Positions 118 to 26,811 of a stretch of 46,017 nucleotides of DNA are shown one piece after another (the stretch's first letter is position 1; each line of letters begins with the position of its first letter). Origin of the DNA: Escherichia phage rolling; sequence record NC_073056.1. The stretch is one strand, 5' to 3'. The position numbers and the translations under genes were made by a program. The notes below the pieces were generated by a model. The model worked only from the letters and a program-made list of their open reading frames with translations, did not search any database and was not told the origin of the DNA.

Positions 118-141
118 AAGGGGCCATAAGGCCCCTTTTTT
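118..141 (+). terminator. Intrinsic terminator (AAGGGGCC-ATAA-GGCCCCTT + T-run)
   Basis: Perfect 8-bp GC-rich stem, 4-nt loop, T6 tract on plus strand; lies where rightward and leftward transcription converge. Confidence 0.6.
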
Positions 142-715
142 AGTTTGAGTTTTCCCAGTCCATCTTGCGCCGCACCAGCGGGCTTTCGTAGTAATCCTTG
201 CCTTCCACTTCCACTAAAGGCCAATCATTAACAATGACGTATGGCTCCGCGATATCTTCAATAACGCCGTGCGCGCTATGTTGTCCGAACGATACGCCCA
301 CCAGGATAACACCGGCAACGCGACGGGTCAGATATTCGCGAGCGCAACGTGCCTCAACCAGTCCGCGACGGATGCCGCTGGTGGCCTTAACCTCGTAGGT
401 CCAGACGGCATCAATCATGTGCTCACGGAAGTCGGGGCCGGACTTAACCTTGCGTTTACCGACCATGATAATATCGCCGCGGTCGATAGTATTGGCGCTA
501 AACAGGCCGGTACGCATAAGCAAGCCTTGCGGGATACAACTACGCCCGCCTGCCTGCCCTTCAAGGTACATGCCCGCAAACATCTCGCCCAGCACACCGA
601 CAAGTCGGCTTTGCTTGCACGCGTCAGACTTTAATCGCCACTGGTCAAACTCGACGCTCGCCAACATTGCCGCTATGTGGAATTGTTTACCTGATATTTC
701 GTATTCGCCGTACAT
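140..715 (-). CDS. Hypothetical protein (191 aa), last gene of leftward early operon
   Basis: ORF track; ATG with GAGGG RBS; no family recognised. Confidence 0.7.
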   Translation of the reverse strand: MYGEYEISGKQFHIAAMLASVEFDQWRLKSDACKQSRLVGVLGEMFAGMYLEGQAGGRSCIPQGLLMRTGLFSANTIDRGDIIMVGKRKVKSGPDFREHMIDAVWTYEVKATSGIRRGLVEARCAREYLTRRVAGVILVGVSFGQHSAHGVIEDIAEPYVIVNDWPLVEVEGKDYYESPLVRRKMDWENSN

Positions 716-757
716 TGTGAAGCCCTCATTGCTGCGGGCCGAAGCCCGCTATTAGAA

Positions 758-1276
758 TTATTTAAGTGCGCTAGTCACCAGTGTTTTTTCCATATTGCGG
801 AAGTCTTCCGGCGTCATGAGTATTTTGGACCCATCCTCGCCAGTGAGCACTACCATAGGCTGGACTTCTTGATCTGCCACACCGAAATTGGCGGCTTTAA
901 CGGTCTTGCCAGCAGATGGCAAAGGGTGCCACGTGCCGGTGGAGATAGGCCAACCCTTGAGGCTGTCGAATTGCGCTGCCGTTGTGTCGACCTGAATCTC
1001 GTCATGCACGGTCATGTAAGACTCGCCCAGCAGTGCGGCATACGCCACCAGGTCAACAATATTGTCTTCCTGGTGCTTACGGTGCTGGCGTACCAGCTTC
1101 AGGCAGATCAGGAAGGTCCAGGCTTCTTGCTCGGTCAGGTCGCGACCGGTAAGCGCGTTAAACACGACAGCGATCTGTTTAGCGCTGCGTTCTTCTTTCG
1201 CGTTGTCATAGCCGTTTTCTTTCCCGCGCTGTTCCATAGTGGTGGCGGCGTTCTTGCAGTATTCAAATGCTTTCAT
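758..1276 (-). CDS. Hypothetical protein (172 aa)
   Basis: ORF track; ATG with AAGGA RBS; promoter-like element and 5' hairpin upstream. Confidence 0.75.
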   Translation of the reverse strand: MKAFEYCKNAATTMEQRGKENGYDNAKEERSAKQIAVVFNALTGRDLTEQEAWTFLICLKLVRQHRKHQEDNIVDLVAYAALLGESYMTVHDEIQVDTTAAQFDSLKGWPISTGTWHPLPSAGKTVKAANFGVADQEVQPMVVLTGEDGSKILMTPEDFRNMEKTLVTSALK

Positions 1277-1320
1277 GATGTTTTCCTTTTAGTGGGGGCC
1301 GTATTGCCCCCGACGCGTTA

Positions 1321-1350
1321 ACTATAGTGCAACCAACCTATTGGTTGCAA
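1321..1350 (-). promoter_or_regulatory. Leftward sigma70-like promoter (TTGCAA-N18-TATAGT) with inverted ATTGGTTGCA motif pair in the spacer
   Basis: Minus-strand -35 TTGCAA (1345-1350), -10 TATAGT (1321-1326); inverted repeat TGCAACCAA (1328-1336) / TTGGTTGCA (1341-1349); followed by GGGGGC/GCCCCC hairpin 1294-1311. Confidence 0.5.
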
Positions 1351-1366
1351 GTAAATTTTGCCACGT

Positions 1367-1708
1367 TTATAGAATAAATTTTCGGGACCAGATCGCCTTA
1401 AATTCTGGCGGTGGGGTGTCGTCCAGCATGTGGCGCATGAACAACCGGCCCGTCGGGAATACTTCCAATTGCTTGGCGGTCGTGTCCCAGCATTCGCGCT
1501 GCCGGTTGGTCAGATACGCTATCTTGAAGCCTTGCTCTTCATACATGCGCAGCAGCGGCAGCATATCCATGTTCAGATCTTCGCGGACGTGCGCTTTGTG
1601 CCACTTTGCCCAAAAGGTTGATTTCGTTTTTATCCCCGGCACCAGGTCGGCACGCGCATCGCTTGAGCCGTTAATAACGCCATCCAAATCGCAAATCAGT
1701 AATTTCAT
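1367..1708 (-). CDS. HAD-like hydrolase motif protein (113 aa; LICDLDGV)
   Basis: ORF track; N-terminal DxDGV resembles HAD motif I; short for a full HAD fold; ATGA overlap with upstream gene. Confidence 0.6.
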   Translation of the reverse strand: MKLLICDLDGVINGSSDARADLVPGIKTKSTFWAKWHKAHVREDLNMDMLPLLRMYEEQGFKIAYLTNRQRECWDTTAKQLEVFPTGRLFMRHMLDDTPPPEFKAIWSRKFIL

Positions 1709-1929
1709 TTTAAACTCTCAATAAGGGTGTAACGGGCGCTTCGCGCAGTAAAGGAGTTGCACACGAAATGGCAACGCTGAGTCATGACAAGCCAACCGGT
1801 GAGGTCAAGGCCCAGGATGTATTCGGGGCGAGACGCGCGCACCACACGATTGCGTCGCTGGTCAATACCGTAGTCTTTTTGCATTTGGTCTACTACCGCT
1901 GGGTCGCGGTCAACGATTAAGATATTCAA
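1705..1929 (-). CDS. Hypothetical protein (74 aa)
   Basis: ORF track; non-ATG start preceded by AAGGAG-like RBS; translationally coupled to next gene. Confidence 0.5.
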   Translation of the reverse strand: MNILIVDRDPAVVDQMQKDYGIDQRRNRVVRASRPEYILGLDLTGWLVMTQRCHFVCNSFTARSARYTLIESLK

Positions 1930-2395
1930 GGAGTTCTCCTTCGCTCATTATTTCAATTTGTGCGCTGCTGGTGGGCGGCGCTTCGTCAAATATTATCAAT
2001 TGCTGGCACTTATTATTGCTCGGCCCAACTTCGCCGGTCACAGCATGGATGAATCGCACACGCCAGTCCAGAAGAATTATCATATTGGCAGTCTTCCGGG
2101 CCAGCTTCGCCCACTTCGTCGACGTGTCCTGATTCAGTAGCATGACAGTACGGCGACCGTGCGCAGCGCACTCGACCCACGGCAGCGGATCGGAGTACGG
2201 CGGATTGCACCACTTCCACCCTTTCAACTCTGACCAGTCCGCCTCAAGCGCGCTATGCTCTGCCGTGAAGTAACGCGGCAGCAGGTGATTGGCGTCGCTT
2301 GCCGCCATATCGTAACGGAATCGGTACTTGCGGCGCAGCGGTTTAAATAAAGCTGGCGGCGTGCGCCAGCTATCCTTTTGCTCATTCTTCGTCAT
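1910..2395 (-). CDS. DNA N6-adenine methyltransferase, phage Dam family
   Basis: N-terminal WRTPPALF...FRYDMAAS and catalytic NPPY (WCNPPYS) motifs; start taken at internal ATG (M14 of track ORF 1910..2434). Confidence 0.8.
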   Translation of the reverse strand: MTKNEQKDSWRTPPALFKPLRRKYRFRYDMAASDANHLLPRYFTAEHSALEADWSELKGWKWCNPPYSDPLPWVECAAHGRRTVMLLNQDTSTKWAKLARKTANMIILLDWRVRFIHAVTGEVGPSNNKCQQLIIFDEAPPTSSAQIEIMSEGELLEYLNR

Positions 2396-2834
2396 GGTCG
2401 GGGGATATCGCGTAAAGGGCAATTTTCTTATCACTGTTTAATATGCGTAGTATGCGCTTTGACACCTCGGCGCTAAGCGCATACCGGTGTAATTCTTCGC
2501 GGCCCAGCCACCCTACCGGAACCAGATCTTTCCGGTCGATCTTAGACTGGCGACCTTTGGGGCGCACGTACTCCTCGGCCCGTTTGCAATGCTCACGCAG
2601 CCCGTCGGCAGTGATGCGGTTTAGTGCAACGCTGGTGGTGTATCCGGTGCGCTGCATAATCCCCATCAATTCGAATAGCAGTTCGAAGCGATCCTCTAAC
2701 TCATGGCGCACTTTCTTCTCGCCTTCATATAGCGCCTGGTTGGTGTCTGCCAGCGCGTTCGCGCGTTCGACCTGTTCGCGGGCTTCGAGGCATTGCGCGG
2801 CCCAGTAATTTTTCTCTTCTTGTAAAATTTTCAT
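2382..2834 (-). CDS. Hypothetical protein (150 aa, coiled-coil-like)
   Basis: ORF track 2382..2876; start moved to internal ATG (M15) with GGAG RBS. Confidence 0.65.
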   Translation of the reverse strand: MKILQEEKNYWAAQCLEAREQVERANALADTNQALYEGEKKVRHELEDRFELLFELMGIMQRTGYTTSVALNRITADGLREHCKRAEEYVRPKGRQSKIDRKDLVPVGWLGREELHRYALSAEVSKRILRILNSDKKIALYAISPDHDEE

Positions 2835-2887
2835 CGTGTTGTCTCCAGGTATTAAAAAGGGCGTCCAACCGGACACCCTTAAGATAA

Positions 2888-2914
2888 TGCAACCAATCTA
2901 ATTACGCAACCAAT
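2888..2914 (-). promoter_or_regulatory. Direct pair of GCAACCAAT motifs upstream of gene 2382..2834
   Basis: TGCAACCAAT 2888-2897 and CGCAACCAAT 2905-2914; a GC hairpin (~2856-2877) follows in the 5' leader. Confidence 0.45.
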
Positions 2915-3238
2915 TTATTCATAAAAATTCGGGTCGCGCGCTACATCTACCAGATAAAGGTTGCTCATTCGGTTGCCGTAGTGCCCTGGCGTGCGCTGGC
3001 GACACACAACTGCGAAGCCTGGAGGGATTGTATTGCCGGTTTCGATAATCCACGCCACGCGCGCGCCAGACAGCTTCTTGCCGTTGCATTCGATACGCGT
3101 ACCGCCATCGGCAGTGTTAAGGTTGCCAATCTTGCTGCCGGTGGACTTAAGGCGAATAACGCCGGTCTTGCTGTCGTAGGAGAATAACTGGTTAGTCATT
3201 GCGACCGAGAAGTCGATGGCTTCGAATGTAGTATTCAT
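2915..3238 (-). CDS. HNH-endonuclease-like protein, apparently degenerate (107 aa)
   Basis: SYDSKTG...NGKK...ARVAW...GNTIPPG pattern resembles HNH_3 homing endonucleases, but the expected His (HRxxW) and DH residues are replaced. Confidence 0.5.
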   Translation of the reverse strand: MNTTFEAIDFSVAMTNQLFSYDSKTGVIRLKSTGSKIGNLNTADGGTRIECNGKKLSGARVAWIIETGNTIPPGFAVVCRQRTPGHYGNRMSNLYLVDVARDPNFYE

Positions 3239-3930
3239 TTTAAATTTCCCTCATTGACTGCTATTGCGAAGCCGCGCGGAGTGAGCGACCGTATTAATTT
3301 GGTGCGGGCAGATTTGCCACCGAGGCGACTATACTGCTTCGAGTACCCTTTTTCAACGAATACCGGCTTTTTCTCCGGCATACGAAAGCCGTTGCCGGTC
3401 CATAAACAGGTCAGCTTTGGATATGAATCGCGGTCGTTGATGTATTCTGGGAACAACGGGTGCGCGTCATCCTCCGGCAGATAGCCGCCATACTCCCACG
3501 GGTCAAACGAGTGGTCTGGCTTGCGCCACTGGGTGGACAGCACACTGCGCGGATTCTCAATCATATATGGCACTTCAAAGAAGTCACCCAGGTAAGCGGC
3601 AATCTTCGCGGTGCGCACGGCCTTAAGCTGAAAGGCGGGGTCTTTCGCACGCTTACGCGGGAACGCGGGCGCACCGCTCACCGCCAGATCCGTGCACGGT
3701 GGGAAAGCGTAGATGACGTCTGGCGTACCAAAATCGCCATTCATAGCGCGGTCTACGAAGTCCAGATCGATAAACTCATTGCGATAGCGGATGCCACGCC
3801 CATAGATACGGTAGTCGAGGTAAGACCCGTGATCGGCTTCGGAGTAGTTGAAACAGTAGCATTTATGCCCCATCTCGGCAGCACGCTCTACCATCAAGCC
3901 GCTGCCGTCAAATAATGACCAGATAATCAC
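3235..3930 (-). CDS. Compact DNA (cytosine-5)-methyltransferase-like protein (231 aa)
   Basis: Motif I-like SLFDGSG, motif IV-like FPPCTDLAVSG, motif VI-like MIENPRSV in canonical order; shorter than typical C5-MTases. Confidence 0.55.
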   Translation of the reverse strand: MIIWSLFDGSGLMVERAAEMGHKCYCFNYSEADHGSYLDYRIYGRGIRYRNEFIDLDFVDRAMNGDFGTPDVIYAFPPCTDLAVSGAPAFPRKRAKDPAFQLKAVRTAKIAAYLGDFFEVPYMIENPRSVLSTQWRKPDHSFDPWEYGGYLPEDDAHPLFPEYINDRDSYPKLTCLWTGNGFRMPEKKPVFVEKGYSKQYSRLGGKSARTKLIRSLTPRGFAIAVNEGNLK

Positions 3931-5351
3931 TTGCGCACCTTCTTAGCTTTCATGTATTCCATCAAATCGTCCTGAATATCGCGCTTACCGTCGCGGCGGT
4001 CTGCCACCAGTTCGTCCAGTGTCCCGCGTGCCTGGATAATGTAGACGAATACCGGTCGAGGGTGTCCGGCTTGCATCTGGCGTACCGGCCCGATACGCTC
4101 CACGATCTGCGCAAAGTGCTCATAGTTCCACGTATCCGAGAAGATAGCCAGGTGATGACCGCCGTCCTGCAAGTTGAGGCCGTGACCCGCCGATGCTGGG
4201 TGTGCGAACATGATGGGGATCTCGCCCCTGTTCCACGCTTCCACATCCTTATTGCCCTGCTTGCCTTTACCCATCGCAACGCCGTGGGGAAACTTCTTCT
4301 TCAGACGTGCCAGGTCGTGCTTGTACTGATACGCAACGAGCAACGGCGCGCCGTTCAACTCTTCTACGATACTTTCCAGCGCGTCCAGCTTGGCGTCGTG
4401 AATCTTCACCCACTCGTCGGTCCGTTCGCCGTCCTCGTCTACCTTATACACGGCACCGGAAGCAAGCTGGAGGCACTTGATGGTCTTCGCCGCAGCGTTC
4501 GCCGCTTCCACTGTTCCGCTTTCCAGTTCGGCAAATAGCTCGCTCTCAAACTGGTCGTAAATCTTGCGGGCTTTCTTCGGCAGGTCCACAACAACCGGCG
4601 TGTAGATGGGCTTGTCACATCCGAAGTATTCAGCCGCGTCCACGGTAAGGGATACATCGGACAGGCGTTGTTGGATCTCCTTCTCGGAGTTCTTGAGCGG
4701 GGCGTGCTGCATAGTGAAGCTGCCGGGTTTAACAGGCTTGCTAATAAACCAGCGATCGGTGAATGCTTTATAACTACTACCGAGGCGTTCTCCACCGTCG
4801 ACAAACCACGTCTGCCCCCATAAGTCCTTCAGTCCGTTTGGTGCAGGTGTGCCGGTAAGGTTAATCCAACGATTGACGTGCTTATGTGCGATCGCCGCCA
4901 GTGCGCGTGCGCGCTTACTACCCTGCTTACTTCGGTAGCCTTTCAGCTTAGTGGATTCATCGGCAACAACGACCGTAAAGGGCCACTCGTCGCCGTAATA
5001 CTCGACAAGCCACTCAACCACATCATAGTTAACGCAAACCACGTTAGCGTTGCTCTCAAGCGCTGCAATGCGGTCTTTCTCTGGTCCGGTGCCGTCTACT
5101 ACCAGCAGGGCTGGGAATCTCCATTTTTCTTGTTCCGGGGGCCACGTACCTGACGCAACGCGCAGCGGGGCTAGCACCAGTACGCGGTCTTCCTGGTTGG
5201 ATAGGATGCCAGTCTGGAACATTTTGTTGAGCGCCCACATAGTCGCGCCGGTTTTACCAGACCCCATTGTCGCCCAAATATTACAACGTTCGTGCTTGAG
5301 AATAAACGCGGTTATCAATTTCTGATATTCGCGACGTCGGAAGCGTGCCAT
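3927..5351 (-). CDS. Superfamily 2 (SNF2/DEAD-like) helicase
   Basis: Walker A TMGSGKTG, DExx box VVADEST; start at internal ATG M31 of track ORF 3927..5441. Confidence 0.8.
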   Translation of the reverse strand: MARFRRREYQKLITAFILKHERCNIWATMGSGKTGATMWALNKMFQTGILSNQEDRVLVLAPLRVASGTWPPEQEKWRFPALLVVDGTGPEKDRIAALESNANVVCVNYDVVEWLVEYYGDEWPFTVVVADESTKLKGYRSKQGSKRARALAAIAHKHVNRWINLTGTPAPNGLKDLWGQTWFVDGGERLGSSYKAFTDRWFISKPVKPGSFTMQHAPLKNSEKEIQQRLSDVSLTVDAAEYFGCDKPIYTPVVVDLPKKARKIYDQFESELFAELESGTVEAANAAAKTIKCLQLASGAVYKVDEDGERTDEWVKIHDAKLDALESIVEELNGAPLLVAYQYKHDLARLKKKFPHGVAMGKGKQGNKDVEAWNRGEIPIMFAHPASAGHGLNLQDGGHHLAIFSDTWNYEHFAQIVERIGPVRQMQAGHPRPVFVYIIQARGTLDELVADRRDGKRDIQDDLMEYMKAKKVRK

Positions 5352-5355
5352 ATCT

Positions 5356-5580
5356 TTATTCCGCCTTTTTCCAGACTTCGGTTTCACTGTTCCAATTCCT
5401 CTTTGTGGCGTCGTAGTTGGTGTCGTGTCCGATGTGCACACCGGTCGAGCGGAAGCTTTTAAACTTCTGCCAGCACACCGTCAACGGCAGCGGGTCATTC
5501 ATGCCTGCGATAAACCACACGCGATCACCTGGTTTGCACTCGCCCAGCTTGGTGAGTCGGTAATGTTCTTTCATCGTCAT
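5356..5580 (-). CDS. Hypothetical small protein (about 74 aa)
   Basis: C-terminal part of track ORF 5356..5787 from internal ATG (M70); upstream part overlaps a better Zn-ribbon ORF in another frame; weak RBS. Confidence 0.4.
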   Translation of the reverse strand: MTMKEHYRLTKLGECKPGDRVWFIAGMNDPLPLTVCWQKFKSFRSTGVHIGHDTNYDATKRNWNSETEVWKKAE

Positions 5581-5617
5581 GTATCCCAAAAATGGCGGGA
5601 CAAGCCCGCCGTATTGA

Positions 5618-5791
5618 TTATTCTTGTTCTGCGCGATAGCGGCGCTGCCTTTCACGCTCTTTCTTATTGCGGCACGATTTGCACTCGGCCCGATGACCGT
5701 CTGGACTGCGCGCAGTCTTGCCGGTGTATTTGTGGAACTGGGATAGCGGCTTGATGCATCCGCAATTACTGCAACGTTTTTCTTCAATCAT
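5618..5791 (-). CDS. Zinc-ribbon protein (57 aa; CSNCGC...CKSC)
   Basis: Four Cys in two CxxC pairs; internal ATG (M21) with GAGGA RBS; GCAACCAAT motif at 5848-5856 upstream. Confidence 0.5.
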   Translation of the reverse strand: MIEEKRCSNCGCIKPLSQFHKYTGKTARSPDGHRAECKSCRNKKERERQRRYRAEQE

Positions 5792-5831
5792 TTCTAAAAT
5801 CCTCGATAGTGCTAACCGGCACACTATACCG

Positions 5832-6110
5832 CTACGCGACCAATTCAGCAACCAATAAATTGCAGTCGGCTATGTTGTCTATAACGCGAACGTCAGCACC
5901 GCGGCGGGCCATCCGTTCATGTTCTCGCACCTGGTGCGGCTTCGGTTTTCCGCCGGGGCGCTTCACTTCGACGAATACTACTCTGCCGTTTATGATAATA
6001 ATCAGGTCGGGCGCACCTGCGCGCCCCTCCCATGCCAGTTTGCGGCAGAATCCGCCAACGGCTTTTACCAGCTTCATCAGGTGACTTTGTATCTTGCCTT
6101 CTGGAGTCAT
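5832..6110 (-). CDS. VRR-NUC domain nuclease
   Basis: PD-(D/E)xK-like GAPDLIIIINGRVVFVEVKRPGGKP signature; ATG start; ATGA overlap with next gene. Confidence 0.75.
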   Translation of the reverse strand: MTPEGKIQSHLMKLVKAVGGFCRKLAWEGRAGAPDLIIIINGRVVFVEVKRPGGKPKPHQVREHERMARRGADVRVIDNIADCNLLVAELVA

Positions 6111-6298
6111 TTGGTTTGCAACTCCACGTTACGCAGACGTAGATCTACCGGTATGTCAGATCGACCGGTTAGCGCCAGCGCCAGGTTTTCAGGCGTGACA
6201 AGTGCCGTAATGGTCTTGCCACGTTCCAGTCTAAGGACGATGCGAATCTCGGCATCGTCCGTCGCGCCAGCGCGCATTATGCTCATTTCTGCTTTCAT
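6107..6298 (-). CDS. Hypothetical small protein (63 aa)
   Basis: Track ORF 6107..6343 from internal ATG (M16) with AGGAAG RBS. Confidence 0.45.
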   Translation of the reverse strand: MKAEMSIMRAGATDDAEIRIVLRLERGKTITALVTPENLALALTGRSDIPVDLRLRNVELQTK

Positions 6299-6302
6299 AA
6301 TC

Positions 6303-8594
6303 TTACTTCCTGTACCGGTACATAATGTCGCCTTCGGCGGCAAGTGGGAAACCTTTCGCCCATATAGGCAGGTCGCACATCAGCGCGCAAAGCTCCTCGG
6401 TCGTGTAGTCGTCGGTGTCCGGCACTTCCGTGATCAATTCATCGTGCACTGACAGGACGATTTCATAGCCCGCAGCTTCAACACCAGGCATGGACCATGC
6501 GAGAATATCGCGGCACAACGCCTGTACGATGTTCTCCGTAAGTTTGCCGCCGTAGGTGTACTGGAATCCCCACTGGCGCGTCGTCTGATTCTCGCCCTGG
6601 TATTTGATGCGGGTACTGGTGCGCTTCTTGCCGGTGTCTTCGTCAATTTCAGTCGTGACAGACAGCGCGATGCCGGGGTAGCTCATGATGCGCCCCGACG
6701 GCAACTCAATTTTCAACCACCACCCCGCGGCGTTCGGGTCGTCGCGCTCCTCGTCGAAGGTTGGGTCGTGCTTCGCCTTCGTGCGCACAATCTTGAGCGC
6801 TTTCCTACCGTCCGGGCGAACGTTCGCGCCAGCCCAGTATGCTTTACCCGGATTGCGGATTGCACACAGCACCGCTTCCTCAAGCTCGGCCCAAAAGGCT
6901 ACGGTCTTCGGGTGCGACTCACGCCACATACGTTTGATCGCGTCGCAGGTCAACCACACGTTTTTAGGCAGTATGTAGGTTGGGCGCTCGTCTTTCTTGC
7001 CAGGCTTCGGCGGGCGCTTCGCTTCGTTGATGCGGGCAAACTCATAGCCACGCTTCGCCGCCGCCCAAATGTGATCGGGGAATGTTCCCTTCATTACGTC
7101 AGCCATCGCGTACAGGTCGAGGCCCAGGTTTTTAGCGAACTGCAAGAACGCAGCAACGCCGCCACCATATCCCAGTCCCAATTCACACGCCTTACCAATC
7201 TGGCGTAGGTCTTTGCGGTTGGCCTTGATGTAGTCCGGGTCGAGGCCGAACATCTTACCGGCAGTTTCACAATAGATATCGCGTCCGGCCTTAAACACCA
7301 TTAGCGCGGTTTTCTCGCCCGCGATCCAGGCAAGGCCGCGCCCTTCCACGTTGGAGTAGTCCGCTACGACAAACTTCTTGCCCTTAGCCGGGATAATGCA
7401 CCCGCGAACGGTCGAGGCGGTTAGCTTCGATATGTCATACGCCCAGTGTGCGGTACCGCGTAACAGGGAGTTGATGCCGTTGGTGAGCATATGAGATCGG
7501 ACCCAAAACGAAACGTCGCTCTCACCTTCTCGGCGCTTAATCTTCCCTTCGTGGTCATCACTGTACTCGCCACGTGCCAGGTTTTGAGGCTGAAAGCCTT
7601 TACCGGCCCAGCGTAGTGTGCGCTTTGCCCCACCGTACTGAAGACAACCACGGCGGCGACCATCGGCAGACAGGCCATTTACGAGCGGATTGTATTTAGT
7701 CGATGCCGTTGATGACGCACCGAGGCGCATCTCAATAAGCACTTTGCCCTCGTCGGGGAAGTCTGGATCTTCCAGCAAGTCATTCAGCGTGGATTTCTGC
7801 GCGTTGTGAATTGTGAACGCCGGGGCAATATCACGCAGGATTGGCAGGAAGTCATTGCCAGTCAGCTTACCGCCGAACAGTTCCCAGGCTTCTTCCTTCA
7901 ATTCCTCTTTATGCACCTGCACCGCCTTGATCGCGGCGTTAGCCAGGTCAACGTCCACATAGAAGCCACGGTCGTTAATCAACTGGTCAATAAGCAGGAT
8001 TTCGTCTTCCTTCGGCGTGTTACCCCAGTCCGGTATGCGCCAGTAGACTTCACGCATTGCGATAATATCCAGCGCGGCATAGCGCAGGAATTTAGCCCAT
8101 TCTTCCGGGTGTGTGTCGCGGGTGTAGCGGCGGATTTTGTAGGTCTTAGGGGTAGGCTTACAGAATCGTTTGATCAGCGCCTTGCCAGCCTTATCCTTCG
8201 CGTGCTCTGCGTCAACGCCCAGTACCCGGCATTGCATATCAAGACTACCCGGCAGCGCATGTCGGAAGGCCATAATCATGGTATCTTCGATCTGGCTTAC
8301 CGGCAGGTCAATACCCCACTTTTCACGGATAACCAGGCGGTCAAACAGGAGGCCGTTCGCCATCACTATTTTTGCTTTTTTGCGGGTTACCTGGCGGAGC
8401 GCCTTGCGTAGTTCACGCGGCATCGTGGGAGATTCAGTGGCGTCCCATGTCTGCACGCGGCCCTCGTCTATGGCGTAGGTGCAAATCATAATCTCGGTGG
8501 TGGGGTGTTCCGCGTAGGCATACGCACCTGCTTTCTTCAGGTCCACCCCGCTAAACGTCTCGGTGTCGAGAAATAGGCGTTCGAAGTCTTTCAT
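6303..8594 (-). CDS. DNA polymerase, family A, with 3'-5' exonuclease domain
   Basis: Exo I motif FLDTETFSG; Pol motif A DYSNVEGR, motif B KACELGLGYGG, motif C SVHDELITEV. Confidence 0.95.
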   Translation of the reverse strand: MKDFERLFLDTETFSGVDLKKAGAYAYAEHPTTEIMICTYAIDEGRVQTWDATESPTMPRELRKALRQVTRKKAKIVMANGLLFDRLVIREKWGIDLPVSQIEDTMIMAFRHALPGSLDMQCRVLGVDAEHAKDKAGKALIKRFCKPTPKTYKIRRYTRDTHPEEWAKFLRYAALDIIAMREVYWRIPDWGNTPKEDEILLIDQLINDRGFYVDVDLANAAIKAVQVHKEELKEEAWELFGGKLTGNDFLPILRDIAPAFTIHNAQKSTLNDLLEDPDFPDEGKVLIEMRLGASSTASTKYNPLVNGLSADGRRRGCLQYGGAKRTLRWAGKGFQPQNLARGEYSDDHEGKIKRREGESDVSFWVRSHMLTNGINSLLRGTAHWAYDISKLTASTVRGCIIPAKGKKFVVADYSNVEGRGLAWIAGEKTALMVFKAGRDIYCETAGKMFGLDPDYIKANRKDLRQIGKACELGLGYGGGVAAFLQFAKNLGLDLYAMADVMKGTFPDHIWAAAKRGYEFARINEAKRPPKPGKKDERPTYILPKNVWLTCDAIKRMWRESHPKTVAFWAELEEAVLCAIRNPGKAYWAGANVRPDGRKALKIVRTKAKHDPTFDEERDDPNAAGWWLKIELPSGRIMSYPGIALSVTTEIDEDTGKKRTSTRIKYQGENQTTRQWGFQYTYGGKLTENIVQALCRDILAWSMPGVEAAGYEIVLSVHDELITEVPDTDDYTTEELCALMCDLPIWAKGFPLAAEGDIMYRYRK

Positions 8595-8761
8595 TGCTTT
8601 ATCCTCACTACGGCGTCAGCGCTGCCGATCATGGAGAAGATTCCGTCGGAAAGGGCAATCTCTTCGCCGTTGTTGCGAATCTCGGCAACGGTAAAATACT
8701 CGCCCAGCAATTTGGACCACACACGCATTCCGACTTTTACTTCACTGGCTTTAATACGCAT
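8591..8761 (-). CDS. Hypothetical small protein (about 56 aa), translationally coupled to DNA polymerase
   Basis: Read by eye (below track cutoff): MRIKASEVKVGMRVW...; stop overlaps pol ATG in ATGA; AGGA RBS. Confidence 0.45.
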   Translation of the reverse strand: MRIKASEVKVGMRVWSKLLGEYFTVAEIRNNGEEIALSDGIFSMIGSADAVVRIKQ

Positions 8762-8773
8762 TTTTCATTGTCC

Positions 8774-8801
8774 TAATAAAAAGCCCGCATTAAGCGGGCT
8801 T
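8774..8801 (-). terminator. Intrinsic terminator/attenuator between SSB gene and polymerase
   Basis: Minus-strand hairpin AAGCCCGC/GCGGGCTT followed by U-rich tract. Confidence 0.5.
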
Positions 8802-8819
8802 GAATAGTGGGCTTTGCCC

Positions 8820-9599
8820 TTAACGGCGGCGACGTTTACGTGGTGCTTCGTCTTCGTCGTCTTCGTCCTCATCTTCGTCATCGCGGGACTTACGACGTTT
8901 ACGCGGCTTATCGTCTTCATCGTCGTCATCTTCATCACGGCGGCGCTTAGACTTGCGCGGTTTTTCATCTTCATCATCGTCGTCACGACGTTTTGACTTT
9001 TTGGATTTACGCGGTGCTTCGTCTTCGTCATCATCCAGGTCGTCGTCAGAGCAATATGCACCGCCGCCGCCACCGAAGGAATCCCCATCATCACGGAAGC
9101 GCATACCCAGCAGACCACAGCCTAAGCCTTTGCCGTTGGTATTGTTCCAGGCCCAAATATCTAAGGAAACGTTGCAATAGCAACCGGAATAGATTTCTTT
9201 CCCTTCGATTTCGTCGCCGTCGATGGTCAGACCCTGCTCCGTCTGCTTCTCGCCTTCGGAAGTCTGGATGATCGGCTGTTTGAATGATTTAGCGTTGATA
9301 TACAGCTTACCTTCAAACTCTTCCGTTACTTCTTCACGCTCATCACCATCTCGAACGGCACATTCTTTCGAATCCTGCGCGTAGTGGCGGTCCATCCACT
9401 TATCGGCGTTCTTCTCAGACTTCAGTTTTTCGGTGAGCACTGCGCGTGCCGCCGCTTCCACTTTGTCCACCTGCGGATCTTCTTTATCAAGAATAATCAC
9501 CGCACGATATGCCGGTTTTTGTCCATCCTGTTTAGGGGTATCACGCTCCCAAATTTTCAGGAAGCATACACGTACATTTTTCAGGTTGACTTTAGCCAT
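8820..9599 (-). CDS. SSB-like protein, DUF2815 family, with unusual alternating acidic/basic C-terminal tail
   Basis: N-terminus MAKVNLKNVRVCF...GQKPAYRAVIIL resembles DUF2815 phage SSB; start at internal ATG (M32) with GAGGA RBS; last ~76 aa are D/E blocks alternating with PRKxKxRR blocks. Confidence 0.7.
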   Translation of the reverse strand: MAKVNLKNVRVCFLKIWERDTPKQDGQKPAYRAVIILDKEDPQVDKVEAAARAVLTEKLKSEKNADKWMDRHYAQDSKECAVRDGDEREEVTEEFEGKLYINAKSFKQPIIQTSEGEKQTEQGLTIDGDEIEGKEIYSGCYCNVSLDIWAWNNTNGKGLGCGLLGMRFRDDGDSFGGGGGAYCSDDDLDDDEDEAPRKSKKSKRRDDDDEDEKPRKSKRRRDEDDDDEDDKPRKRRKSRDDEDEDEDDEDEAPRKRRRR

Positions 9600-9654
9600 T
9601 TTCCAATTCCTCATTTCACATGTATCGGGGTTATTAGAAGCCACCCCGTCCGGC

Positions 9655-9678
9655 TTGGTTGCTAATGTACTTGGTTGC
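9655..9678. promoter_or_regulatory. Pair of TTGGTTGC motifs in SSB upstream region
   Basis: TTGGTTGC at 9655-9662 and 9671-9678, between membrane protein gene and SSB gene. Confidence 0.4.
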
Positions 9679-9695
9679 GTTTCCGCGGTCAAGTG

Positions 9696-9929
9696 TTATT
9701 TATCAAAAAGTTTTAAAATCAGGTCGAGATATTTGTGCAGCCACACCAGTGGTGGGCGGTGCACGTTGTTTCCCATCCAGTTCAAACAGGCTTCGTTATA
9801 GCCGTCGTCCCATAAGCGGGATGGGTGGCGAATCATCCAGGCCAGCGCCAGCAGACCGCCGCAGGTATGTACTACGAATCCCAGCGCCGCAAGCGGCAGC
9901 ACCATAATCATTGCCAGAATCTTATTCAT
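9696..9929 (-). CDS. Small membrane protein (77 aa)
   Basis: Internal ATG (M43 of track ORF 9696..10055) 3 nt after upstream stop; hydrophobic ILAMIMVLPLAALGFVV... segment. Confidence 0.5.
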   Translation of the reverse strand: MNKILAMIMVLPLAALGFVVHTCGGLLALAWMIRHPSRLWDDGYNEACLNWMGNNVHRPPLVWLHKYLDLILKLFDK

Positions 9930-11352
9930 CGCCCAAATCCTCGTCGCTTGCTTCTTGCCATTCCGGGCGCGGGTCGTCAACTGGTGCCAGGACCGGTTTC
10001 GCCGGCGCACGCGTGATTTTATCTTGCAGTTTCGCCCACACTTTCGGTTTCTCATCCTTCAGCACCTTCTCGGCATCAGTAGGGCTGATTAATGATTCCT
10101 TGTACATCAGGTCGCGCTTGATCCGGGCCGTTGTGAATACAGCGATAACTTCGCTTTCATCCTTCCACTTACGCGCACCTTCACGACCAGCTACCAGCTT
10201 CAGGCCCAGCGCTTCGCCGTCACCGGCTAACACTGCTTTGAATACGGCAGTCTCGATCGCTTTGATGTGCTGGCGCATGGTTTCCAGGCCGTCGTAAGCC
10301 TTCTTCAGTTCTTCCGTGGTCATAGCACCGGCTGGCGCTTCTTTCTTGCCACGCTTCGCACGTCGGGCAGCTTTCCGGGCTTCGAGGTCCATGTTCTGGT
10401 CGTGGTTTTTGCATTCTTCCTCGGCGGCAATGCTTACATCGTCGCCCAGGTCTTCGTCGGTTGCCGTTGGTGGCGTCATTGTGTCGATGGCGGCTTTAGC
10501 GCGGGAACTACATTGGTCCGCAAATCGACACCACTGACACGCATCGGCGCTCGGACGGAAGTCTGCACGGGTGAGATTCTTCTTACCCTTAGCGAGGGCA
10601 TCCAGGGCGGCTACTGCGCGTTTTGCTGCGTACTTGGCGAAGATTTCCAGTGCTTCCACCGAAATATCCCACTCCGACGCCCCGCCGCAATACGGCTGGA
10701 ATATGACCAGGCGCACGGTTGTTATGTCGTACATCTTTTGCAGCTTGCGCAGCAGTCCGAGCGCATACAGCATAAGCTGTTTGTTCTCTTTCGCCTCGAC
10801 CTTATGGCGCCCGGTCTTCAGGTCGCCCACAATGAGCATGTACGTGCCGTCGGTCTTCTTCATTACCATAACCATATCGGCAGTACCGAAGGTCTTGATC
10901 GCTTCGCCGTCAATCTCGTAGCCTTTGTGCAGGACGCGAGTCAGATCCGCGCGCATCTCAAGCTGTACAAACTCGGCAACTTCAAGCAGCGGTCGCCAGT
11001 GGTCGATGTACGCGTCGCACTGTTTCACCATGTCGTCAGTTACCAGGATGGCGTCCTTAGGTGCTTTAGCTGCCGCTTTAACTGGTCCTTTACCCTGATT
11101 TTCGACGTAGCACCCTTTATATGTCTTCGCCGTGATGTGGTCTTCGCCTGCAATGATGCGGTTTAGTACCACTTCAGATACGGTGTGCATACTCGTACCG
11201 TTGATCGCGGCTTGCCCGGATTCGTTCGGAATACCTTTCTCCACCACCAGGGCGGCGGGACACCCCATCCATTTTTTAGCGCCGGATGGGCCGAGTAATG
11301 AGTGTTCTGTATTACTGCCGGATTGCGTCTTGCGCTTCGCTTTGATAGCCAT
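9922..11352 (-). CDS. PD-(D/E)xK nuclease, DUF2800/Cas4-like (phage exonuclease)
   Basis: N-terminal LLGPSGAKKWMGCP, GDLKTG, C-terminal Cys cluster CQWCRFADQC; conserved neighbour of DUF2815 and pol A. Confidence 0.75.
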   Translation of the reverse strand: MAIKAKRKTQSGSNTEHSLLGPSGAKKWMGCPAALVVEKGIPNESGQAAINGTSMHTVSEVVLNRIIAGEDHITAKTYKGCYVENQGKGPVKAAAKAPKDAILVTDDMVKQCDAYIDHWRPLLEVAEFVQLEMRADLTRVLHKGYEIDGEAIKTFGTADMVMVMKKTDGTYMLIVGDLKTGRHKVEAKENKQLMLYALGLLRKLQKMYDITTVRLVIFQPYCGGASEWDISVEALEIFAKYAAKRAVAALDALAKGKKNLTRADFRPSADACQWCRFADQCSSRAKAAIDTMTPPTATDEDLGDDVSIAAEEECKNHDQNMDLEARKAARRAKRGKKEAPAGAMTTEELKKAYDGLETMRQHIKAIETAVFKAVLAGDGEALGLKLVAGREGARKWKDESEVIAVFTTARIKRDLMYKESLISPTDAEKVLKDEKPKVWAKLQDKITRAPAKPVLAPVDDPRPEWQEASDEDLGDE

Positions 11353-11540
11353 TATTCGACCCTCGTAAATTGAGCAATATAATAATCATGCTTAATTCCT
11401 GCTTTCGCCGCGGCGTTATTCATTGTCGCTGCCAGTTCTTTCGCTTGCATCCAGCAACAATTCCAGTTCTGATTCATAATTATTTCCGGCTGTTCGTCGC
11501 CGGTGTTACGGCAGCGAAATAAAACAAAGAAAATACTCAT
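11352..11540 (-). CDS. Hypothetical small protein (62 aa)
   Basis: Internal ATG (M6 of track ORF 11352..11555); TAATG overlap with upstream gene. Confidence 0.4.
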   Translation of the reverse strand: MSIFFVLFRCRNTGDEQPEIIMNQNWNCCWMQAKELAATMNNAAAKAGIKHDYYIAQFTRVE

Positions 11541-11791
11541 TATGGCGTCTCCCAACGGTCAATAGTTTTTGCTTCAGATCCAACTGCAAAGCGAACATAT
11601 TCATGATTCGAGTCCGCCCATAAATAAAAGTCTGGATTAGCGAAGGTCGTGCGTTTAATTTGTGCCGGTGTTTCCCGCTTCTTACTAATTACGGCAACGC
11701 GCGATTGAAATGGGCCGGTGCGTTCGAATAGCCAATAATAAGGGCGCTGGTCGCGTGAATCCACCGCCTCGATTAGCGTGAAGCGTGCCAT
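11540..11791 (-). CDS. Hypothetical protein (83 aa)
   Basis: ORF track; GAGGA RBS. Confidence 0.6.
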   Translation of the reverse strand: MARFTLIEAVDSRDQRPYYWLFERTGPFQSRVAVISKKRETPAQIKRTTFANPDFYLWADSNHEYVRFAVGSEAKTIDRWETP

Positions 11792-11839
11792 TATCTCGTC
11801 CTCTAAAAATAGGCCCGCAGATTAGCGGGCCGGATAATA

Positions 11840-12358
11840 TTAATCTTCTAATTCGAAATACGTTTCTACGATTTCTTTTAAATCTTTGTGGAAGTCTTCG
11901 ACGTCGTCATCTTCCAGCTTGGCGACGGATTTAATTTCGAACGCTTCCAGCAGATCATCAAATTCGTCGTTTGCGTCGTCGTCATCTCCGCCCGCAATAA
12001 TAGCGGCATACTGTTTGATTTCGTCGCGCATTTCTTTAAGCGGATCGGCATCTTTCTTGCCTTTGCCTTTCGCCGGTGCTTTCTTAGATTTCGCCGGGGC
12101 TTCTTCCTCGTCCGCGTCGTCGTCTTCTTCTACGGCTTCTTTCTTAGCCTTGCCCTTTGCGGGCGCTTTTTTGGTCTTTGCCGGGGCTTCGTCTTCAGCA
12201 TCGTCATCTTCGGCTACTTCTTCTTTCGCCTTGCCCTTTGCCGGGGCTTTCTTCGCTTCCTGTTTACCAACGGCAGCGCCAGCAGTTTCATAATGCTTAG
12301 CGATGGTTTCCAGTGCTACAACGCCGCGAGTGATCAGGTTTACGATTTGCTCAAACAT
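11840..12358 (-). CDS. Charged low-complexity protein with three KKAPAKGKxKK / acidic repeats; first leftward early gene
   Basis: ORF track; ATG with GGAG RBS; repeats EEVAEDDDAEDEAPAKTKKAPAKGKAKK x3. Confidence 0.7.
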   Translation of the reverse strand: MFEQIVNLITRGVVALETIAKHYETAGAAVGKQEAKKAPAKGKAKEEVAEDDDAEDEAPAKTKKAPAKGKAKKEAVEEDDDADEEEAPAKSKKAPAKGKGKKDADPLKEMRDEIKQYAAIIAGGDDDDANDEFDDLLEAFEIKSVAKLEDDDVEDFHKDLKEIVETYFELED

Positions 12359-25380: not shown

Positions 25381-25893
25381 CTACAAACGCATCGGCATGA
25401 TAACTAAAAAGGAACCTCCTTTGAACAGCACGCGTGTTGCCTTGTCTACTCCCTGAAATTCCAGTTTTAAGCCCTCAAACTTATGGTCGAACAATTTAGC
25501 AATTTTGCAGGCGTCGGACAGGTATGCCCCTTTAAACCCGATAGCCTCCACTTTATTGCTGACGAAAGACGTAACTCTTCTCCAGTCTGGAAATCGTCCG
25601 TCTACAATCTCGATGGGTATGGTAGCTATTAATACGTCTTTACTATCGAAGAACGCGGCGGAGGTGCCGTCTATGTTGCAGTATTCGAATTTAGTAGGTA
25701 AGCGGCCTTTAATTGATACTATTTTACTTTCACCTTCTGGAACAACCGCGGACCCGCAGAACAAACGGTGACCGTCGGTAGCCACGATGAATCCTTTCTC
25801 GTCGAAAAATACACCATTTAGGAAGTATCGGACGTCATTAGTTGCGGCGCACATCGTAGCGGCTTTAATGTCGGCATAGTTAACTTTAATCAT
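25381..25893 (-). CDS. Truncated beta-sliding-clamp (DnaN) homologue (about 170 aa)
   Basis: DVRYFLNGVFF...VATDGHRLF, IVDGRFPDWRRV and C-terminal LVIMPMRL match DnaN domain II/III hallmarks as recalled from E. coli DnaN; start at internal ATG (M27) with GAGGA RBS. Confidence 0.75.
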   Translation of the reverse strand: MIKVNYADIKAATMCAATNDVRYFLNGVFFDEKGFIVATDGHRLFCGSAVVPEGESKIVSIKGRLPTKFEYCNIDGTSAAFFDSKDVLIATIPIEIVDGRFPDWRRVTSFVSNKVEAIGFKGAYLSDACKIAKLFDHKFEGLKLEFQGVDKATRVLFKGGSFLVIMPMRL

Positions 25894-25915
25894 TTTCATT
25901 TCCTCGTGGTTATGT

Positions 25916-25955
25916 AGAAAATAATTCTGGGGCCGTGATGGCCCCTTTTTTGTTA
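25916..25955 (+). terminator. Terminator hairpin, right copy of the 40-bp direct repeat
   Basis: 30/30 identical to 25340-25369 then T6; duplicates the last codons of Rz1 plus the hairpin. Confidence 0.7.
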
Positions 25956-26717
25956 GCGCGGAATACCGCAAATCTCGTTGAGTGTTTTCACGTCCAGCGC
26001 CACCGCCGTGGACTTCGTCTTGTTCTGATATGGAATGAACTGTTCAACTTCAGGCCACGCCTTGATCAGCTTCTTATCGGTATTGTGCATATCCAGCACG
26101 CCGGTAACAGTTAGCTTGAACGCGTCATACTTTGCGCGCAACTCGCGGCGGGCCTTGTCATTTCGGTCCAGGCGCTTGCAGAAATCATGATCGGCCGGGT
26201 AGTCTACGCGTCCGCGCGGGAGATATATCGGCAGCACTTTTCCGTCCTCATCCACTTCGCACACTGACGCGAGCATAATTTCCGCGTACCCCGGTACAAT
26301 ATCGCTAACGTCAGGCGCGAGCGTATTCATATATTTCTCTTCCCAGTATCCGCGATGCCGGCGGTAGCTGTATCCGTCACCGCTCATATACAGGGATCGG
26401 ATGTTACCGCCTGCGTTGATTTCGAAATTGTCGCAGTAAACGCACCCAATACCCTTCTGACGGTCTTTGTTATAGCTATACGTCGCCTTGTCGGTGTAAA
26501 CGCTGACGCCATACATCTGCGACTGGTTATTGCGGATTTCTTCGATATATGCGCGTAGCTCGGCGAACGTGCGAATGCCTTTTGGCATACAGTCCAGCGT
26601 AATTGCGTACGCCAGGTCGCGAGAGTCCATCATGATTGATTTGGCTTCAGTCGCGATTTCGTGGTCGCGCAGGATGTTAGCCAGAATCTGGTTTTTAATG
26701 TCTTTTGTCAGTCGCAT
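25953..26717 (-). CDS. Hypothetical protein (254 aa), moron gene antisense to the late operon
   Basis: Track ORF 25953..26762 from internal ATG (M16) with GAGGA RBS; no family recognised. Confidence 0.65.
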   Translation of the reverse strand: MRLTKDIKNQILANILRDHEIATEAKSIMMDSRDLAYAITLDCMPKGIRTFAELRAYIEEIRNNQSQMYGVSVYTDKATYSYNKDRQKGIGCVYCDNFEINAGGNIRSLYMSGDGYSYRRHRGYWEEKYMNTLAPDVSDIVPGYAEIMLASVCEVDEDGKVLPIYLPRGRVDYPADHDFCKRLDRNDKARRELRAKYDAFKLTVTGVLDMHNTDKKLIKAWPEVEQFIPYQNKTKSTAVALDVKTLNEICGIPR

Positions 26718-26739
26718 TTGTGTTTCCTCATTGTTGGTG

Positions 26740-26811
26740 TGCAACCAATATAGTGCAACCAATACCTGTATTGCAAGCGAATTTTGCGATTATTTTTATC
26801 GCTGATAATAT
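26740..26811. promoter_or_regulatory. Back-to-back divergent promoters (leftward for moron genes, rightward for scaffold/capsid)
   Basis: Leftward: TTGCAA (26771-26776) N18 TATATT (plus 26747-26752), with TGCAACCAAT at 26740-26749 and 26754-26763; rightward: TTGCGA (26784-26789) N16 TAATAT (26806-26811). Confidence 0.5.

Follow-up and report, generated by a model that had tools for sequence, protein, structure and literature searches.

The 46,017-nucleotide (nt) sequence of Escherichia phage rolling (NC_073056.1), which was analysed over its whole length and is called the window here, carries two predicted DNA methyltransferase genes on its minus strand. One encodes a Dam-type adenine enzyme of 161 amino acids (aa) and the other a compact, Dcm-like cytosine enzyme of 231 aa. 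An earlier reading made from the letters of the DNA (the sequence-only reading) had pointed to two methyltransferase-like open reading frames (ORFs), and both were found on the minus strand at the positions it gave. The first 8.6 kb of the window matched 171 phage records, nearly all of them Escherichia phages from Dhillonvirus, a genus of small, HK578-like siphoviruses, and the best records were ~94% identical over 98% of the query. Judged from its DNA sequence, the window is a Dhillonvirus (HK578-like) coliphage with ~94% identity to published isolates. The positions of both genes, of their conserved motifs and of the neighbouring genes are collected in Table 1.

Table 1. Methyltransferase genes of the window, their conserved motifs and the adjacent genes.
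Feature	Position	Strand	Basis
Dam-type N6-adenine DNA methyltransferase gene (predicted), 161 aa	1910..2395	-	Pfam PF05869, PHROG 111, start choice
NPPY, catalytic motif IV of the adenine enzyme	2195..2206	-	W-C-N-P-P-Y invariant or nearly so in the alignment of relatives
DMAAS segment, conserved N-terminal PF05869 motif	2297..2311	-	D29, M30, A31 and A32 invariant in the alignment of relatives
Gene of a 150-aa protein	2382..2834	-	PHROG 10530 ('DNA ligase'), E=9.7e-81
HNH (homing-type) endonuclease gene, 107 aa	2915..3238	-	PHROG 99 E=7.8e-16; in relatives 'putative homing endonuclease'
Compact 'Dcm-like' C5-cytosine DNA methyltransferase gene (predicted), 231 aa	3235..3930	-	PHROG 757, motifs, fold, homology
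LGGKSARTKLIRSLTPRG, conserved basic C-terminal segment (motif IX-like)	3271..3324	-	Invariant residues in 36 relatives
KLTCLWTGN, motif VIII-like	3391..3417	-	K172, T174 and W177 invariant
ENP, motif VI (canonical ENV; P for V), residues 125-127	3550..3558	-	E125, N126 and P127 invariant
PPCTDLAVSG, motif IV, with predicted catalytic Cys79 (3694..3696)	3673..3702	-	P77, P78, C79, T80, S85 and G86 invariant
FDGSG, motif I (AdoMet-binding loop), residues 7-11	3898..3912	-	F7, G9, S10 and G11 invariant
SNF2-type DNA helicase gene	3927..5441	-	PF00176 E=6.5e-11; PHROG 62 E=1.3e-156

The adenine enzyme matches the Pfam family PF05869 ('Dam') with E=1.6e-36 and 125.9 bits, against a gathering threshold of 28.1, and it also matches PHROG 111 (E=1.8e-56). 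The sequence-only reading had proposed a Dam-family N6-adenine methyltransferase with an NPPY motif, and both the Pfam score and the motif agree with this proposal. The Pfam match covers residues 14-151 of a longer, 174-aa ORF and profile positions 3-146 of 169. This GTG-started ORF (1910..2434) was rejected as the real Dam gene in favour of the ATG at 2395, since the Pfam match begins at that methionine and relatives annotate a gene of 486 nt. The NCBIfam equivalog model TIGR01712 gave 91.1 bits (E=5.2e-26), just under its cutoff of 97.05; going by these scores, the protein belongs to the family but falls short of the name given at the equivalog level. The conserved DMAAS segment is probably the region that binds S-adenosylmethionine (AdoMet).

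All 15 relatives of this enzyme in the word-indexed database carry PF05869, and tblastn detected it in 1751 phage records, including phages that convert to Shiga toxin (Stx) production and T1-like phages. The Dam of the Stx-converting phages is 36% identical to it over 84% of the length, and the Dam of T1-like phages is 27-30% identical. The small size and the NPPY motif are common to phage Dam proteins of the PF05869 family (Stx/VT-2, HP1, T1), whereas the host-type or T4-type Dam family presents no sequence relation to the enzyme. A profile search of PDB sequences with the alignment of the adenine family retrieved nothing relevant, that is, no solved close relative. The Dam proteins of VT-2, HP1 and T1 methylate GATC, and GATC is also the probable target here. 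These three proteins have been described in the literature as cloned or phage-induced adenine methyltransferases. Regarding these data, the 161-aa protein is best described as a predicted phage Dam-type N6-adenine methyltransferase.

The cytosine gene starts with GTG, with AAGAAGG just upstream. A longer form of 236 aa, as annotated in the phage Oekolampad, is impossible in the window, where an in-frame TAA lies five codons upstream. The 231-aa product matches PHROG 757 ('DNA methyltransferase') over residues 1-229 with E=1e-81. Conservation was assessed in an alignment with 36 relatives, which share 55-84% identity with the window protein. Motifs I, IV and VI stand in canonical order, and since FDGSG, PPCT and ENP are invariant in the 36 relatives, they are conserved features and not chance strings. 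The description of the protein in the sequence-only reading, a compact protein of 231 aa with the C5 motifs FDGSG, PPC and ENP, is thus borne out by the invariance of the motif residues, and also by the fold (see below). The KLTCLWTGN segment would occupy, by its position, the place of motif VIII. Close to the C-terminus, the basic segment LGGKSARTKLIRSLTPRG keeps L203, G204, G205, K206, T210, K211, I213, R214, S215, P218, R219 and G220 invariant, and it is a candidate DNA-contact element that would replace the target-recognition domain.

This compact family is found in 1510 of 50,697 phage records (tblastn), distributed among Dhillonvirus, T1-like, T4-like and rV5-like coliphages and phages of Klebsiella, Salmonella, Vibrio and Campylobacter. 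With a threshold of E<=1e-3, an exhaustive profile search returned 1976 cluster representatives, and among the best 150 of them almost every protein measures 200-260 aa. As seen in these searches, the family is large and coherent.

The AlphaFold2 model of the cytosine enzyme, built with the family alignment, reached a predicted local distance difference test (pLDDT) value of 91.2 and a predicted template modelling score (pTM) of 0.89. A Foldseek search with this model gave 57 PDB matches at E<=1e-3, the first being the catalytic domains of DNMT3A and DNMT3B (E ~1e-6). The modelled fold is that of a C5-methyltransferase catalytic domain. The family-profile search of PDB sequences retrieved nothing relevant, and no solved close relative is available for this enzyme either. 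The PHROG match, the fold and the homology together place the 231-aa protein in a family of minimal C5-cytosine methyltransferases.

The comparison with DNMT3 is informative about motif IV. The family was aligned by hhalign with the DNMT3A catalytic domain (query 100% identical to PDB chain 5yx2_A), and motifs I-IV, in the N-terminal third alone, were aligned with a probability of 48%; FDGSG falls on LFDGIATG of DNMT3A and PPCTDLAVS on SPCNDLS. In DNMT3A and DNMT3B, motif IV reads PC(N/T)DLS, as in the window protein, and not PCQ. The sequence-only reading had noted a T in place of the Q that follows the catalytic cysteine and had considered a non-canonical enzyme. T80 is indeed present, but it is not a sign of odd chemistry, because it is invariant in the family and the catalytically active DNMT3A has N in this position. 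Apart from these motifs the differences are considerable: DNMT3A and DNMT3B are just 12-17% identical to the window protein, and their catalytic domains of ~285 aa have a larger recognition region and act as tetramers on CpG, in contrast with the 231 aa of the phage protein. Nothing indicates that the window protein and DNMT3 are linked by a specific evolutionary relationship. A likeness between the C-terminal ARTKLIRSLTPRGFA and ARQRLLGRSWSVPVI of DNMT3A was noticed by eye; it was confirmed by no tool and is not relied on.

A member of the cytosine family has already been characterised. The phage KarlJaspers (Bas06) encodes bas06_0055 ('Dcm-like', a 711-bp gene for 236 aa), which is 54% identical to the window protein (E=5e-86) in a full-length alignment of residues 2-231 with residues 5-236. 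The K42/KarlJaspers Dcm and the window protein both present the PPCTDL, ENP, WRKP, KxT-LWTGNGF and GGKS-RTK-IRSLTPRGFA segments. KarlJaspers belongs to the Drexlerviridae (Hanrivervirus) and has other gene neighbours, whereas the window is a Dhillonvirus. Phage K42 is a KarlJaspers/Bas06-like Drexlerviridae phage whose Dcm is the ortholog of the KarlJaspers protein, and its mutants that escape the retron Ec86 all disrupt the 711-bp dcm gene (bioRxiv 10.1101/2023.08.16.553469). In that study, the expression of K42 Dcm was toxic solely with Ec86 present, and it raised 5-methylcytosine (5mC) on the multicopy single-stranded DNA (msDNA) of Ec86, as measured by mass spectrometry coupled to liquid chromatography (LC-MS), while a C82A/E128A/K175A/K176A mutant did not. 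Moreover, three changes of the CCTGG of the msDNA (AATGG, ACTGG and CATGG) all abolished the Ec86 defence (10.1101/2023.08.16.553469). The role of K42 Dcm as the trigger of Ec86 was restated in a later paper. C82, E128 and K175 of K42 Dcm correspond to C79, E125 and K172 of the window protein, all three invariant in the family; it should be noted that the four residues of K42 Dcm were mutated solely together, as a quadruple mutant. In GenBank records of near-identical phages, the two genes of the window are annotated as 'Dam-like N6-adenine methyltransferase' and 'Dcm-like C5 cytosine methyltransferase'. Both genes are thus already known, by annotation and by the characterised 5mC-forming homolog.

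A more distant member is encoded by the Klebsiella phage KP36 (JF501022.1 47558..48232), where a protein 43% identical to the window enzyme is annotated as 'hypothetical protein'. The 2013 study of KP36 reported full resistance of its DNA to EcoRII, for which 155 sites were predicted, stated that the genome had no cytosine methyltransferase gene and credited the resistance to the host.

Concerning the window itself, GATC occurs 156 times, 0.77 of the Markov expectation, and CCWGG occurs 152 times, 0.95 of the expectation; the genome avoids neither of these sites. Over the whole window, GAATTC and CTGCAG have one site each against 9-13 expected; for CTAG, 14 sites were counted against 60 expected by the Markov model. 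The scarcity of these three palindromes indicates restriction-site avoidance alongside methylation. The counts fit a situation in which GATC and CCWGG are tolerated through methylation and other palindromes are avoided, and they do not separate methylation by the host from methylation by the phage. The literature searches turned up neither methylomes nor digests for any Dhillonvirus.

Taking the sequence, the model and the homologs together, it is likely that both proteins are active orphan methyltransferases that mark the replicating phage DNA with N6-methyladenine (6mA) and 5mC. Both genes would act as orphans, with no partner restriction enzyme, in the leftward cluster of replication genes. 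The 161-aa enzyme would use NPPY to methylate adenine, most likely in GATC. In the 231-aa enzyme, Cys79 of PPCT would attack C6 of a flipped-out cytosine, Glu125 of ENP would protonate N3 and the FDGSG loop would hold AdoMet. The product would be 5mC, probably at the Dcm site CCWGG; this target of E. coli Dcm is the presumed target of the phage enzyme too and the one towards which we lean. Both enzymes would be produced alongside the replication proteins, so that new phage DNA would be methylated and the progeny would be marked regardless of the Dam/Dcm status of the host, which would shield them from those restriction enzymes that such methylation blocks. The cost, documented for the family, may be that the cytosine methylation can be sensed by the retron Ec86. 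An anti-restriction purpose, as suggested by the sequence-only reading, would be the natural reading of this arrangement.

Several observations weigh against this interpretation. The 231-aa protein has no match in Pfam, NCBIfam or PADLOC, none of whose methyltransferase models hits it, nor in sequence-profile searches of the PDB. PF00145, the family of E. coli Dcm, M.HhaI and M.HaeIII, did not match it even at E<=10 and gave weak matches for 25 of the 36 relatives (best E=1.3e-6). Because these searches were empty, it is PHROG, fold and homology that carry the C5 assignment. Motifs I, IV and VI are common to the window protein and these three enzymes, but it is ~100 residues shorter than the canonical bacterial C5 methyltransferases (231 aa against 327-330 aa for M.HhaI and M.HaeIII). 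It also has neither the QxRxR of motif VIII, at whose equivalent position K172-L-T174-C-L-W is found with no arginine pair, nor, in the stretch from motif VIII to motif IX, a target-recognition domain of substantial size. The motif VIII-like segment and the C-terminal one are only ~22 residues (181-202) apart, and the sequence-only reading was right that the protein has no room for a normal target-recognition domain. Furthermore, K176 of K42 Dcm corresponds to Leu173 in the window protein, in a variable column of the family. E. coli MG1655 carries a Dcm of its own. It was the strain of the K42 experiments, in which the control msDNA was poorly methylated despite its CCTGG; the specificity for CCWGG was taken over from the name 'Dcm' and tested only indirectly (10.1101/2023.08.16.553469). 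Since the control msDNA carried little 5mC in such a strain, the phage enzyme may differ from the host Dcm in efficiency, in substrate form or preference, or in specificity. In the case of KP36, the EcoRII resistance could come from the host Dcm. Concerning the anti-restriction purpose, the restriction systems tested on the BASEL phages reportedly recognise sequences other than GATC and CCWGG. In the BASEL study, the restriction resistance of the related Drexlerviridae was not linked in any simple way with their methyltransferase genes, and Dhillonvirus was more sensitive to the restriction systems tested than the Queuovirinae (Nonagvirus, Seuratvirus).

Part of these points would also be explained if the 231-aa enzyme were an active C5 methyltransferase whose target is not CCWGG but a shorter or relaxed motif, or hairpin or single-stranded DNA. 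The ~22 residues left for recognition, the fact that CCWGG was assumed and not mapped in the K42 work, the poorly methylated CCTGG of the control msDNA in MG1655 and the mere 54% identity with the tested homolog speak for such a target. On the other hand, all three CCTGG mutations abolished the Ec86 defence, KP36 DNA is EcoRII-resistant and CCWGG is abundant and undepleted in the window genome, and we consider a different target possible but somewhat unlikely. It would be a bolder proposal, and an unlikely one, that the whole family recognises its sites without a recognition domain, or has a relaxed or structure-dependent specificity unlike that of the host Dcm. By analogy with DNMT3 oligomers, the site might be read by dimerisation on the palindrome, through the catalytic loop and the basic C-terminal segment. 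If true, a specificity unlike that of the host Dcm would explain how Ec86 tells phage from host cytosine methylation.

The purpose of the marks could also be another one, with both methyltransferases serving mainly the DNA metabolism of the phage through packaging or replication marks, avoidance of mismatch repair or full methylation during fast replication. E. coli K-12 hosts supply Dam and Dcm, which is compatible with this idea. So are the location of both genes in the replication cluster, the overlap of the cytosine gene with the stop of the SNF2 helicase gene and the BASEL result on the Drexlerviridae. Nevertheless, the 1510 phage records belong to phages with very different types of replication and packaging, and this fits a portable defence-evasion gene better. 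Pac-type or regulatory clusters of GATC/CCWGG were not seen either, although no search aimed at them was made. A mainly metabolic role seems rather improbable. It is still harder to accept that the 231-aa protein does not form 5mC in DNA at all and is a DNMT2-like RNA methyltransferase, an enzyme transferring another group (carboxymethyl from carboxy-S-adenosylmethionine, Cx-SAM, which E. coli makes) or a dead DNA-binding protein. The missing PF00145 match would agree with any of these, but the whole family keeps the catalytic cysteine, the ENP glutamate and the AdoMet loop invariant, the K42 homolog produced 5mC on DNA according to LC-MS and the active-site mutant lost it, and the protein resembles 8yf3 and Dnmt2 no more than it resembles ordinary DNA C5 methyltransferases; we regard this last explanation as very improbable. 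The two enzymes are therefore still best read as probable 6mA- and 5mC-forming methyltransferases of the phage.

A hypermodification pathway with 5mC as its precursor was also considered and rejected. The full annotation of a 93.6%-identical relative contains no TET/5mYOX dioxygenase, glycosyltransferase or hydroxymethylase, and a precursor role of 5mC is unlikely because these partner genes are not annotated there. Regarding other modification genes, the window encodes a 269-aa protein (25953..26762, minus strand) with the Pfam domain Nmad5 ('nucleotide modification associated domain 5', E=8.3e-56). Its gene is located on the opposite strand within the block of head genes, and the neighbouring 196-aa ORF (25381..25971, minus strand) gives a weak sliding-clamp-like match under the cutoff. 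In other Dhillonvirus phages, point mutations in nmad5 lead to escape from the Tmn defence system (PMC11846954). The Nmad5 gene may be, from its domain match, a third gene of this genome linked with DNA modification. Besides, a 57-aa CxxC...CxxC zinc-ribbon protein (5618..5791, minus strand) is encoded in the same leftward cluster as the methyltransferases; it matches PHROG 5558 (E=3e-16), which is labelled 'Lar-like restriction alleviation protein', and also the endonuclease VII and HNH zinc-ribbon families, which leaves the Lar-like label uncertain.

The genetic context of the two methyltransferases is that of replication. The minus-strand genes from ~140 to 12,358 encode replication functions (the SNF2 helicase, a VRR-NUC-type nuclease and DNA polymerase I), and the annotation of relatives adds a single-stranded DNA-binding (SSB)/annealing protein and an exonuclease to the rest of this cluster. 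The SNF2 helicase gene is directly upstream of the cytosine methyltransferase gene, and its stop overlaps the methyltransferase start (GTGA). The HNH gene follows directly downstream, where its ATG overlaps the methyltransferase stop (ATGA). In Shigella phage 1b, a match was obtained only to the last 57 residues of the methyltransferase, adjoining a homing endonuclease, which hints at an endonuclease-associated disruption of the cytosine gene in that phage.

The two methyltransferase genes are 2 kb apart, with the gene of the 150-aa protein and the HNH gene between them. Some GenBank records, as well as PHROG 10530, label the 150-aa protein as a DNA ligase, and one GenBank note reads 'Possible DNA ligase but no evidence'. 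The label looks like a propagated annotation and is doubted here because the protein has no Pfam, NCBIfam or PADLOC match and 150 aa is far below any known ligase; this gene is context only and outside the methyltransferase function. At 2876..2915, an uncharacterised ORF of 243 nt is missing from the window; in relatives it stands between the ORF with the 'DNA ligase' label and the gene of the HNH endonuclease (compared carriers: Oekolampad bas18_0034 and RuthEpting Bas85_0036; L001 3333..3575, L004 26912..27154).

The sequence-only reading had placed both methyltransferases in an early operon. Strong leftward promoter-like sites are found at 12,449-12,420 and 12,555-12,527, and terminator-like hairpins of the minus strand at 11,831, 8,801 and 5,610. 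The promoter scan gave 12 sites against 9.5±3.1 in shuffled sequence, with no enrichment. The early operon is thus plausible but unproven, and it is still an assumption because promoter-like sites are no commoner than in the shuffles.

For phage biology in general, these results add little that is new, as near-identical Dhillonvirus phages are annotated and a member of the cytosine family has been characterised as a 5mC-former and a trigger of Ec86. They reveal, nevertheless, a gap in annotation: Pfam, NCBIfam and PADLOC do not pick up the compact C5 family, whose proteins are named 'hypothetical' in many records, so that predictions of host range based on methylation can miss a cytosine methyltransferase. 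The way in which a C5 enzyme of 231 aa, with ~22 residues in the place of the recognition domain, finds its site is a tractable structural question. Moreover, a phage that carries the cytosine gene may be sensitive to hosts with the retron Ec86, such as E. coli BL21, and this sensitivity would be relevant to the choice of therapeutic or laboratory phages.

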